Positions 9,205 through 12,568 of a stretch of DNA of 64,000 bases are shown here, one piece after another (the stretch's first letter is position 1; each line of letters starts with the position of its first letter). Made by a program: the position numbers and the translations under genes. The stretch is taken from the IMG/VR virus record IMGVR_UViG_3300033183_000354, positions 88,720 through 152,719 of that record; one strand, 5' to 3'. This DNA comes from a virus. The notes beneath the pieces were generated by a model that had not been told where the DNA came from, searched no databases, and saw nothing but the letters and a program-made list of their open reading frames with translations.

Positions 9205-10119
9205 ATGTCATTCGAAAATCTAAAACGCAATCGCGACCAAATCTCCAAACTTGTTCAAGCAGCCGAAGCCACCAACGGAGGTGGTGAAAAGAAGTCGTAT
9301 GTCGATGAACGAATTTGGAAACCTACAGTAGACAAAGCGGGTAACGGCTATGCAGTCATTCGATTCCTCCCAGCAGCAGAAGGCCAAGAACTCCCATGGG
9401 TTCGATACTGGGATCATGGATTCAAAGGACCAACCGGTCAGTGGTATATCGAAAACAGCCTTACTTCTATTGGTCAACCTGATCCAGTTGGTGAACTCAA
9501 CTCAAAGTTGTGGAATTCTGGGTTCGAGGAAGACAAAGAAAAAGCCCGAGCACAAAAGCGTCGACTCCACTATGTAACTAATATCCTCGTTCTTCAGGAT
9601 CCAAGTGCTCCTCAAAACGAAGGTAAAGTATTCCTCTATAAGTTTGGTAAAAAGATCTTTGATAAGATCATGGACTCTATGCAACCAGACTTTGCAGATG
9701 AAACACCAGTCAATCCATTTGACTTTTGGTCAGGTGCAGACTTTAAGTTGAAGATCCGTCAAGTAGAAGGATATCGTAATTATGATAAGTCGGAGTTTGC
9801 AGGAACATCTTCTCTCTATGATGGAGATGAATCCAAGTTGGAAACAGTCTATAACCAACTACATGATCTCAGTGAGTTCACCGATCCAAAGAACTACAAA
9901 ACGTATGACGAGCTCAAAGCAAAGTTGATGCGTGTTCTCGGTGAAGAGGCCACAGCAGGTTCATATACGATTAAGCAAGAAGCGATGATCAATGAACCGG
10001 CACCAATGCTTGAACCTCGTTCAGCTGAACCAGTAACGGCAGATCAATTGTCTGCTAGCTCACTCGAAGATGACGATGATACCATGTCATATTTCGCTCG
10101 GTTAGCTAGTGACGAATAA
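9205..10119 (+). CDS. gp32: single-stranded DNA-binding protein gp32
   Basis: DERIWKP..DKAGNGYAVIRFLP, WYIENSLT, GKVFLYKFGKKIFDKI, acidic tail DDDDTMSYFARLA. Confidence 0.97.
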   Translation: MSFENLKRNRDQISKLVQAAEATNGGGEKKSYVDERIWKPTVDKAGNGYAVIRFLPAAEGQELPWVRYWDHGFKGPTGQWYIENSLTSIGQPDPVGELNSKLWNSGFEEDKEKARAQKRRLHYVTNILVLQDPSAPQNEGKVFLYKFGKKIFDKIMDSMQPDFADETPVNPFDFWSGADFKLKIRQVEGYRNYDKSEFAGTSSLYDGDESKLETVYNQLHDLSEFTDPKNYKTYDELKAKLMRVLGEEATAGSYTIKQEAMINEPAPMLEPRSAEPVTADQLSASSLEDDDDTMSYFARLASDE

Positions 10120-10129
10120 TATATATAAT

Positions 10130-10470
10130 TCTGCATCCACATTTTATTTCGTGGCTCTGCTGAATAAAGGGGTTGGCCGCCAGAAATAAGCTCGTACAGA
10201 TCAACGGTTAGTCTGTCAAATAAGCATGTGGATGATCTAATAGGTAAGATGCTGGGATAACTCGGCAATGGGAGTTCGAATCTCTCTCCACATACTCCAT
10301 AAAGCGTCCTCGAACCGGGCGCTAGGATATGTCTGATTATGCTATGTAGGGTCGATATATCTGACAGGGAAGTAACCCGTTTTAGATCGATAGCTATCTC
10401 TATATTGGGTGGCGGTATAGAGCGATATATCAAATGCCTTCTGCAGAGCGGTAGGTATAGGCCACCCCAA
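10130..10470 (+). ncRNA. candidate large structured ncRNA surrounding a tRNA-like domain
   Basis: GC-richer non-coding stretch with many hairpins; GGGGTTGGCC (10169) or GGGTGGC (10407) can pair with GGCCACCCC (10460). Confidence 0.5.
10224..10299 (+). ncRNA. tRNA-like element with a 9-bp acceptor stem and a 4-nt anticodon loop
   Basis: GCATGTGGA/TCCACATAC; D arm ATCT-AATAGGTA-AGAT; CTGGG-ATAA-CTCGG; T arm GGGAG-TTCGAAT-CTCTC; 3' TCCA. Confidence 0.7.
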
Positions 10471-10535
10471 ATTTTGTTTATTTTAAGTCATAGATTGTTA
10501 CTCATAGTACTAATTGAATGACTATAATAAACCTT

Positions 10536-10609
10536 GCGGGTATAGTATAATGGTATTACAATCGCCTTCCAAGCCAAAGACCTCGGTTCGATTCCGGGTA
10601 CCCGCTCCA
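10536..10609 (+). tRNA. tRNA-Gly(UCC) with a mismatched anticodon stem
   Basis: GCGGGTA/TACCCGC acceptor; CTTCCAA loop; GGTTCGATTCC; TCCA end. Confidence 0.9.
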
Positions 10610-10616
10610 GTTTAGG

Positions 10617-10676
10617 TCAGCCAACCGATTAGGCCTAGTCGCTGAGTAAGCCTCGGACAAAAGTTGGTGCAACTGA
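10617..10676 (+). ncRNA. candidate small three-way-junction RNA
   Basis: TCAG/CTGA and CCAAC/GTTGG enclose hairpins CGATTA-GGCC-TAGTCG and CTGAG-TAAGC-CTCGG. Confidence 0.4.
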
Positions 10677-10685
10677 AAGGAGAGA

Positions 10686-10730
10686 GACTACTTCGGTAGT
10701 CGGGGATTAGGAGACTTCGGTCTCCTAATT
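10686..10730. terminator. tandem cUUCGg hairpins, probable terminator between convergent transcription units
   Basis: GACTAC-TTCG-GTAGTC and ATTAGGAGAC-TTCG-GTCTCCTAAT, followed by TCTTT. Confidence 0.75.
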
Positions 10731-10732
10731 CT

Positions 10733-12568
10733 TTATGGGCCTTGATCCCAAATCATCTCGCTAGGATTAAATGAACTCACATCACCGCGTGGAAGAAAGG
10801 TGTTATTTTCATTTTGAATAGAAACGTTATCACCTACTTGACCTACAGCTACAGTTCCTCTTGATACAGGTACATTATTATTTGTTGAAGCAGTAATTTG
10901 AGCTGCGCCAGACGCGACACCACTATCAACTTGAGGCTTGCTTATGGCTTGTCGCGGCTTGGGTGCCGGTGTATAACTCTCATCAAATGTATTAGTGTCA
11001 GGCAATGTTGATGCAACGCGGGCCGCTTCTCTTAATTTTAGTTCTTCATCTGTCTTTCCAATGAGCCATGCTGCAACTTTTCTTCCGGCATAATCACCAC
11101 CAAAATAACCAGCTAGTGTTCCAATGACACCACCAATGAGTGTTCCCGGTCCAGGGAATGCACTACCAATAGCACCTCCAAGTAATCCGAATCCAATCGT
11201 TCCAAGTGTTCCTCCAATAAGAGGACCTAATTGTTCAATCTTTTCATCCATGCTTAGACTATCATCCATCATAATTGATGCTGCCAGCGCGCTATCGAGT
11301 GCAGCAAAGAGTAACGCTGAACCCGGAATCCCACGTAAGCCTTTAATCCGTGGAAACTTTTGCCACCATTTGGCTCCAGTACCAACTGGCTTCATCTTCT
11401 TTAAGTCTGCTTCACTTAATACTTGACTAGTCGCTTTACCATCTGCACCGGCGATCGCATAGTTGCCTTTAGCAGTCTTTACAACGTTCTTACCGTCTAA
11501 TGTACCATAGACTCGAGGAGCTGATGGCATCCTAGTATTTGCTGCCCTTTGAGCATCAATTTCTGCTGCAGTAGGACCTCTACGTACCATATTAGATACG
11601 CCCTTTGCAGCTAAAGCTGCGCCACCAGCGACAGCAGCCCCTCCAACAATATCTTCGGTTGTAATTTCTCCTGATCCATCATCACCTACTATACCATCAA
11701 AAAATTTATCATATACGTATGTTCCAGCTGCAACTGCAGCTGCTATTGCAAGAAGCCTTCCTCCTTTGCGCGTGCCAGCAAATAGTGCAATATTTTTTAA
11801 ACCTCTCATAAATGGACCAGGGGCAATGAGCAATGCCATACCAGCAAGAAGACCTGCAGTTTCTTTAAAGTTTGATGTTAATGTATCCCAGTCTCCTGTG
11901 ATAAGAGCATTTATACCATCTAACCCTTTACCTACACCTTCTTGGAGTGCTACCATTACCTTTGTTAAATCTGGCAACTTAATTCCAAGATCATCTAATT
12001 TCTTTTTTAAGTTTTCTCCAAGTTCACCAAGCTTGTTCATATTCTCGTCAGTGGCAAGAGCACCGACTGCAACACCAATGAGACCGAATCTCTTGCCTAG
12101 AAGCGAACCAAATGAACCACCAAGTGTCGCTCTTTCGGCCGCATCGCCGAGTTCTTTTTTTCCAGTTTGACTTGTTACCCAATCTCCAATCTCATCTGCA
12201 AAGACTACACCAAGAGCAGCAGGAATACCTTTCTTTGCAAACGTACCAAATAGTGATTTACCAAAGGCAAGGAGTCCACCGCCGGTTAATAATCCAGTCG
12301 GTAACGTCGTAAATTTATCAAACTTATCTCCAAGAGATGAAGCTCCACGACCAATAGCTCCACCCGCTGCGCCTACACTTACACCAATCTTTTGCATCAG
12401 AGATTGTTTCATCTCTCTTTGTTCTTCAAGCTCATCGCCTTTCTTTGTTTCCATATAAGAAACAAAGCGATCAATAGCACCACTCGTTTTAGCAGTGTTA
12501 TCGCTCACTTGCGTAAGGATTTTACCTTGAGATAAAAGAGTATCGTTGAGTGCAGCTAAACTAGACAT
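10733..12568 (-). CDS. tape-measure / baseplate hub protein (gp29-like)
   Basis: 611 aa, Ala/Gly-rich amphipathic and TM-like segments; follows gp26/gp51; length similar to T4 gp29. Confidence 0.7.
   Translation of the reverse strand: MSSLAALNDTLLSQGKILTQVSDNTAKTSGAIDRFVSYMETKKGDELEEQREMKQSLMQKIGVSVGAAGGAIGRGASSLGDKFDKFTTLPTGLLTGGGLLAFGKSLFGTFAKKGIPAALGVVFADEIGDWVTSQTGKKELGDAAERATLGGSFGSLLGKRFGLIGVAVGALATDENMNKLGELGENLKKKLDDLGIKLPDLTKVMVALQEGVGKGLDGINALITGDWDTLTSNFKETAGLLAGMALLIAPGPFMRGLKNIALFAGTRKGGRLLAIAAAVAAGTYVYDKFFDGIVGDDGSGEITTEDIVGGAAVAGGAALAAKGVSNMVRRGPTAAEIDAQRAANTRMPSAPRVYGTLDGKNVVKTAKGNYAIAGADGKATSQVLSEADLKKMKPVGTGAKWWQKFPRIKGLRGIPGSALLFAALDSALAASIMMDDSLSMDEKIEQLGPLIGGTLGTIGFGLLGGAIGSAFPGPGTLIGGVIGTLAGYFGGDYAGRKVAAWLIGKTDEELKLREAARVASTLPDTNTFDESYTPAPKPRQAISKPQVDSGVASGAAQITASTNNNVPVSRGTVAVGQVGDNVSIQNENNTFLPRGDVSSFNPSEMIWDQGP

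Follow-up and report, generated by a model that had tools for sequence, protein, structure and literature searches.

The window that we analysed is a 64,000-nucleotide stretch of a complete 152.7-kb virus contig with direct terminal repeats (IMG/VR record IMGVR_UViG_3300033183_000354), which derives from a marine T4-like myovirus. The gene for the single-stranded-DNA-binding protein gp32 lies on the plus strand at positions 9205-10119, as shown by its open reading frame, a PF08804 match and its homologues, and the protein shares 60% identity with that of Phage C48C1 (Kyanoviridae), 56% with that of Methylophilales phage Melnitz and 55% with those of cyanomyoviruses. In a collection of about 15 billion proteins this gp32 was a singleton with no exact record and with nearest relatives at 88-89% identity, indicating that the lineage is under-sampled. 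The gene converges with a minus-strand gene of the baseplate module encoding 611 aa (10733-12568); the corresponding minus-strand neighbours in C48C1 are annotated as a peptidase, a baseplate hub assembly catalyst (gp51) and a baseplate hub protein (gp26). The 3' untranslated region of gp32 is occupied by a lineage-specific non-coding cassette of 492 nt (10120-10611, plus strand), in which two hairpins are followed by a tRNA-like gene, a multi-hairpin stretch of about 235 nt and, at the 3' end, a canonical tRNA-Gly(UCC) with an encoded CCA (10536-10609, plus strand), which was called by ARAGORN and scored 60.8 bits in Rfam. No second copy of the cassette was present within the phage's own genome.

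Beyond the cassette, alignment with relatives revealed a conserved non-coding block of about 123 nt (10612-10734) that ends in two UUCG-capped hairpins. The block is common to relatives L001, L002, L003, L022 and L034 and partly to L006, L008 and L011, with invariant stretches that include TAGGT... and ACAAAAGTTGG, and the conserved 5' half may constitute a separate RNA element. The capped hairpins look like back-to-back terminators, one for each of the convergent units (gp32 and baseplate), and a minus-strand terminator was called at 10701-10686. No terminator was found between the gp32 stop codon and approximately 10712-10734, and no convincing promoter was found inside the cassette. This layout fits co-transcription of the cassette with gp32, so that the cassette RNAs would most simply be made by read-through from gp32.

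The tRNA-like gene (10226-10294, plus strand) was matched end to end by the Rfam tRNA model RF00005 with 45.5 bits against a cut-off of 29 (E = 1.9e-8 in a scan of 701 nt and 9.8e-10 genome-wide), while the four true tRNAs of the phage (Arg-UCU, Ser-UGA, Leu-UAA and Gly-UCC) scored 53.6-63.3 bits on the same model. In the frame of the covariance model, the acceptor is a perfect 7-bp stem (AUGUGGA/UCCACAU, 10226-10232 with 10287-10293) followed by the discriminator A10294. The D stem has 4 bp (10235-10238 with 10247-10250) and the D loop is AAUAGGUA; the T arm (10270-10286) consists of the stem GGGAG/CUCUC and the loop UUCGAAU. U8, A14, G18, G19, A21, G53, U54, U55, C56, A58 and C61 are present, together with G26 and a variable region of 4 nt, and in the RF00005 alignment all 21 stem pairs of the body and all bases of the tertiary contacts are intact. 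The preliminary description of this DNA had reported a cloverleaf with a canonical D arm containing GG and a T arm with TTCGAAT, and the sequence is as described there.

The single departure lies in the anticodon arm. The remnant at 10252-10265 (plus strand; GGGATAAC is the short-arm sequence in the assembled contig, within 10250-10270) pairs CUGGG with CUCGG, including two G.U pairs, around the loop AUAA (10257-10260), and with 14 nt instead of the normal 17 it is 3 nt shorter than that of any decoding tRNA. The 4-nt loop that had been noted earlier is borne out by a 3-nt gap in the model alignment, by the minimum-energy fold, which adds a G26-C44 pair to give a 6-bp stem closing the same four bases, and by ARAGORN. 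In its default mode ARAGORN made no call, and with the relaxed option (-ps) it returned tRNA-??? at 10226-10295 with a 2-base anticodon, in line with the pseudo or undetermined call that had been anticipated. The gene thus reaches the tRNA family score and forms the cloverleaf, while a 7-nt anticodon loop with U33 and a three-base anticodon is lacking; as it passes the family score and fold and fails the defining loop, it is a tRNA derivative and not a tRNA. Its tRNA derivation is beyond doubt, and the lesion is confined to the anticodon loop. On structural grounds, a loop of 4 nt (at most 6 nt) cannot present an anticodon, so the predicted RNA cannot pair with a codon and would not decode, as the preliminary description had held. 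An Rfam run over the whole window (1-64000, gathering thresholds) missed this match, which surfaced only in the small-region scan and the genome search. The miss is a filter effect, and speed filters can hide tRNA derivatives that carry indels.

The preliminary description had placed the element at 10224-10299 (plus strand), with a 9-bp acceptor stem containing one C-A mismatch and a 3' CCA. Seven of these base pairs are supported by the model, but the two additional positions contribute one pair (G10224-C10295) and one mismatch (C10225.A10294), and such an extension is no better than chance. The CCA likewise depends on the frame: with nine positions an unpaired U is followed by CCA at 10297-10299, whereas with seven the discriminator is followed directly by CUCCA. 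In all four working tRNAs of the phage the CCA is encoded straight after the discriminator. The 3' end of the tRNA-like gene is therefore ambiguous. Several known tRNA classes were considered for the element and set aside. A selenocysteine-type or histidine-type long acceptor would have to be of a 9/5 form unlike that of any known class, and its extra pairs are no more than chance would give; an initiator tRNA is contradicted by a U-A pair at 11-24 and by the lack of a C1xA72 in the 7-bp frame; a recent duplicate of one of the phage's own tRNAs is excluded by the unrelated sequences. A lysidine-type tRNA-Ile2 was also rejected, since the element has neither the C4-G69 nor the C5-G68 pair, which we take to be determinants for TilS.

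Upstream of the cloverleaf, the sequence CATCCACAT (10134-10142, plus strand) is a perfect complement of 10226-10234, confirming an observation in the preliminary description, and within it TCCACAT (10136-10142) is a direct repeat of the 3' acceptor strand at 10287-10293. A complement of at least 9 nt arose in 28 of 2000 shuffles (1.4%), so its occurrence is somewhat unlikely by chance. The alternative fold that had been suggested on this basis is indeed available: in the nearest-neighbour model it reached -48.6 kcal/mol against -44.4 kcal/mol for the forced cloverleaf, an advantage of 4.2 kcal/mol, and it would form first during transcription. One may thus suppose that the cloverleaf is not the working fold, and that the 5' acceptor strand and 10134-10142 instead close a domain of about 100 nt with two hairpins in the 3' untranslated region of gp32; such a domain could, for example, stabilise the 3' end of the mRNA, and the likeness to tRNA would be a matter of ancestry only. 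Nevertheless, nearest-neighbour models ignore the tertiary contacts of tRNA and often mispredict true tRNAs, the upstream stretch alone was no more structured than shuffled sequence (z = -0.41), and L022, which shares only the first ~46 nt of the leader, does not conserve the complement. The complement and direct repeat are mildly unusual and have no comparative support, and we consider it highly improbable that this domain is the working structure.

We searched extensively for homologues of the tRNA-like gene, and neither a short-loop nor a normal-loop version was found in INPHARED, IMG/VR, JGI metagenome contigs, GTDB or the contigs of relatives. Megablast and blastn searches of INPHARED with the region and the 76-mer matched only the tRNA-Gly, apart from insignificant T-arm matches, and blastn together with ARAGORN on 80 gp32 loci from IMG/VR gave no relevant match. 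The covariance search of phage sequences that the preliminary description had proposed did recover ordinary tRNAs, but no short-loop homologues from which covariation could be read: on 82 sources, all matches of a purpose-built covariance model (R1) were to ordinary tRNAs that carry a 3-nt insertion against the model, and ordinary tRNAs were again what it matched in the whole contigs of four relatives and in Phage C48C1. Pattern scans of IMG/VR with the D and T arms at any arm length, with the T arm and acceptor, or with the acceptor and T loop yielded nothing relevant. The 14-mer of the short arm had at least 118 matches, and among the matches listed none was followed by a T-arm-like sequence. 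A scan of JGI metagenomes returned unrelated sequences, namely tRNA-Glu genes from soil and one tRNA-like sequence rich in AT, and pattern scans of GTDB gave no match. Furthermore, a tRNA with the same acceptor stem and T loop, whatever the length of its anticodon arm, was found neither among 185,579 GTDB species genomes nor among 2.9 million IMG/VR contigs.

A singular sequence of this kind raises the question of an artefact, in which an ordinary tRNA with a 7-nt loop lost three bases during metagenome assembly or sequencing. The genome is indeed known from one metagenome-derived contig, of which no collection contains a second copy. However, the deletion does not lie in a homopolymer or repeat, and consensus sequences from short or long reads do not typically contain an error of this kind, a clean loss of 3 nt. 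In addition, 93% of the window is taken up by open reading frames of 100 aa or more, and neither gp32 nor the genes around it differ in length from their counterparts in relatives, indicating that the assembly is not prone to indels. We therefore regard an error as quite improbable.

Comparison with relatives placed the cassette at a variable site. In most of 80 related loci from IMG/VR the gap between gp32 and the baseplate gene is -4 to +10 nt, and a subset carries a block of ~123 nt equal to 10612-10734. In L002, L003 and L008, whose gp32 is about 84% identical, the gp32 stop codon abuts the homologue of this block, so that 10120-10611 represents a 492-nt indel and these closest relatives do without the whole cassette. 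It is likewise missing from the relatives whose gp32 is nearest, at 88-89% identity. The content of the site differs even among contigs encoding an identical gp32 protein (P0003), which have either the bare block of 121 nt, a gap of 333 nt with a manA RNA (RF01745), or a manA RNA with a DUF4031 open reading frame and a decayed tRNA-Trp-like piece (28.4 bits, broken acceptor). Across the relatives the site was empty or held a manA RNA, a small open reading frame, a tRNA-Gly or the decayed tRNA-Trp-like piece; in L062 a tRNA-Gly directly follows gp32, while in L010 it lies 1.5 kb upstream instead. The gap that separates gp32 from the convergent baseplate gene is thus a hot spot for insertions, with fast turnover. 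Apart from ~46 nt shared with L022 and the tRNA-Gly of L062, the cassette had no similarity to the inserts of other relatives.

Several further observations concern these inserts. The first ~46 nt after the gp32 stop codon (10120-10166; from TATATA... up to GGCTCTGCTGAAT) are common to L022:3889-3945, and L001 and L005 also start with TATATA; based on these shared starts, the inserts seem to have in common a short leader at their left edge. The manA RNA scored 68.3 bits at L048:3979-4185 and 48.1 bits, below the cut-off of 55.2, at L212:3043-3203 and L215:3450-3610 (E ~3e-9). L005 is 85% identical to L048 over the gap, and the manA scan reported no match there. No plus-strand gene follows the manA RNA in L212 and L048, and a DUF4031 open reading frame follows it in L215; in L212 and L048, the RNA cannot serve as the 5' leader that the catalogue entry of the family describes. 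According to a 2026 preprint (10.64898/2026.07.01.735769), manA RNA forms a 60-mer cage. The tRNA-Trp(CCA)-like sequence at L215:3836-3902, at 28.4 bits just under the cut-off, has a broken acceptor stem, and its T arm replaces the usual terminator hairpin before TTTTCTTTA; it is a tRNA that has decayed or been truncated. A homologous insert of ~190-200 nt (L014:2520-2720, L030:2797-2992 and L051:1771-1968) or ~130 nt (L037:3891-4022) reads like a short protein-coding gene of less than 70 aa and not an RNA. ARAGORN also called 'tRNA-Ile(tat)' genes of 91-94 nt with very long variable arms at L006:330-423, L017:1108-1201 and L021:833-923; they are either class-II-like tRNAs with a UAU anticodon or misfolded calls, and as unrelated long-arm tRNAs they were rejected as relatives of the element.

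Downstream of the tRNA-like gene, the multi-hairpin stretch (10300-10535, plus strand) matched no Rfam family at E up to 10, and no homologues of it were found. The fold of 10300-10480 gave a z-score of -1.87 against shuffled sequence. A long-range pairing between GGGUGGC and GCCACCC is possible within the stretch, and parts of it loosely recall manA (CUGA... hairpin ...UAGAU), though the manA model gave no match. A 60-aa open reading frame at 10339-10521 looks spurious as a gene.

This arrangement lends itself to a functional reading, in which selection has kept the gene as a tRNA mimic that does not decode, placed in the 3' untranslated region of the highly expressed gp32, and in which closing off the anticodon arm is what the design is for. 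RNase P and 3' processing enzymes would release the RNA from the transcript that reads through from gp32. It could then serve as punctuation that frees the gp32 mRNA at its 3' end and the downstream RNA at its 5' end, with the tRNA-Gly defining the other end of the latter, or as a decoy or sponge for proteins that recognise the elbow and acceptor of tRNA and not the anticodon. The intact body with the loop as its sole departure is consistent with this possibility, as is the stable closed hairpin of 5-6 bp that the anticodon arm forms. So is the position of the gene, which has gp32 on one side and on the other an RNA-like stretch that a true tRNA bounds, in a 3' untranslated region where neither an internal terminator nor a convincing promoter was found. 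Relatives put other RNA genes (manA RNA and tRNA-Gly) at the same site. The tRNA cluster of T4 itself includes stable RNAs of no known function, and the 3' domain of one of them, rnaC, resembles an acceptor and T arm. On the other hand, the zero homologues leave no evidence of selection, the closest relatives do without the element, and the stability of the flanking stretches, which match no family, is not clearly above that of shuffled sequence (z = -1.87 and -0.41). An RNA without an anticodon would also be a poor decoy for known anticodon nucleases: those described in PMC10264068 and PMC11464382 read the loop, so a decoy against them would not serve. Moreover, the element has no G3:U70, no long variable arm and no G-1:C73, which are the identity elements of synthetases that ignore the anticodon. 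Neither role, both of which the preliminary description had raised, gained positive support in our analysis. We consider a role as a processing signal plausible from the layout of the locus, and selection as a mimic overall a possible but doubtful explanation.

The explanation that we favour, with moderate confidence, is a tRNA gene, probably of the NAU (Ile/Met) type, that was disabled by a 3-nt deletion and whose RNA is probably still processed like a tRNA. The cassette bearing the tRNA-like gene landed in the hot spot in the gp32 3' untranslated region, and on this view a normal 7-nt anticodon loop would have lost three bases to leave AUAA. The remnant looks like the product of a simple deletion from CU-NAU-AA or from xU-NNN-AA (e.g. 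AU-NNN-AA). It may correspond to positions 35-38, that is, the end of an N-A-U anticodon followed by A37 and A38, which would indicate an Ile or Met type, and this is the more natural reading because it also fits A1-U72 and the discriminator A73. MAFFT aligned AUAA with the GAUAA of the tRNA-Ile(GAU) of Citrobacter phage Tr1, which has the same 4-nt variable region and a near-identical T arm, although the match alone is not significant (E = 2). No intact Ile tRNA was found in the phage by ARAGORN or the Rfam genome search, while tRNA-Ile(CAU) is the one tRNA common to all tRNA-bearing T4-like genomes compared in PMC1524935. The RNA would probably be made by read-through from gp32, and since the rest of the tRNA body is intact, host tRNA-processing enzymes would probably still cut it out, with RNase P acting at 10225/10226 and trimming at the 3' end, and the relic would travel with the working tRNA-Gly.

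Accordingly, we regard the gene as a young tRNA pseudogene, a relic neither decayed nor deleted yet. It combines tRNA ancestry with a disabling lesion, and the absence of the cassette from the closest relatives points the same way, as do the fast turnover of the site and the decayed tRNA-Trp-like piece found there in L215. AUAA is not a stabilising tetraloop, whereas the terminator hairpins of the phage use UUCG caps, and in the 7-bp frame the gene has no encoded CCA, unlike the four working tRNAs. Pseudogenes called by tRNAscan-SE have precedent in T4-like phages, with three in Aeh1 and one in 44RR (PMC1524935). Other observations speak against decay. An intact parent or orthologue with a normal loop was not found in GTDB, IMG/VR or JGI metagenome contigs, so the expected parent tRNA is missing from every collection searched. 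The 9-bp frame does give a CCA end, and the 9-nt upstream complement also counts against a mere relic. Decay is seen only in the loop, and with the body intact a pseudogene requires that the deletion happened very recently or that the body is still under selection.

Among known systems, the gene resembles the canonical tRNA family (RF00005) in its 7-bp acceptor cloverleaf, GG-containing D loop, UUCGAAU, 4-nt variable region and A73, and it differs in an anticodon arm that is 3 nt short and has no U33 or anticodon in a 7-nt loop. The likeness to phage tRNA-Ile lies in the alignment of its AUAA remnant with (G)AUAA, and the difference from the phage's four working tRNAs in the missing CCA directly after the discriminator. 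As with the T4-like tRNA pseudogenes of Aeh1 and 44RR (PMC1524935), it is tRNA-derived, standard finders refuse or flag it, and it sits in a variable region beside a working tRNA; it shows only one visible lesion in an otherwise perfect body, the published ones being compared here by their 'Pseudo' calls. The nearest functional precedents, by analogy, are rnaC and rnaD of T4 (species 1 and 2; NC_000866 70908-71171), non-decoding stable RNAs beside tRNA genes, which adjoin tRNA-Arg and are annotated without known function. A weak model alignment gave rnaC an acceptor-like stem and a T arm, and neither rnaC nor rnaD reached the tRNA family cut-off. At 119-139 nt they have no full cloverleaf and no sequence similarity to our element, which is a complete tRNA minus three loop bases.

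More distant parallels are found outside the T4-like phages. The mascRNA/MEN-beta RNA (RF01684) is similar in idea, as a tRNA-shaped non-decoding module in a longer transcript that is cut by RNase P or RNase Z and thereby sets where neighbouring RNAs begin or end; the tRNA-like units of murine gammaherpesvirus 68 are likewise tRNA-like processing signals in a eukaryotic setting. The mascRNA/MEN-beta is, however, eukaryotic and its model did not match here, and processing of our element is only proposed. YrlA (RF02553), described in PMC4201824 as a tRNA-like Y RNA of bacteria and some phages, is also a tRNA-mimicking non-coding RNA unable to decode, but our element has no Rfam match to it and no long Ro-binding stem. 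The models for mascRNA/MEN-beta, YrlA and manA (RF01745) gave no match in 10050-10750 at E up to 10. As no homologue was found, the element is best filed as a new orphan disabled phage tRNA gene.

For genome annotation, the case is a warning that default ARAGORN and whole-window Rfam searches can both miss a 45-bit match to the tRNA model. If the gene is a relic, it would offer a clean snapshot of the death of a phage tRNA gene by a single in-loop deletion, in a fast-turnover hot spot behind gp32 and beside a working tRNA. If it is functional, it would be a very simple case for the emerging idea that phages keep tRNA-shaped, non-decoding RNAs, a question that dates from the discovery of the stable RNAs of T4. 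The more solid by-product is the mapping of the site downstream of gp32 as a landing pad for RNA genes in marine T4-like phages, with manA RNA, tRNA-Gly and tRNA remnants among its contents.
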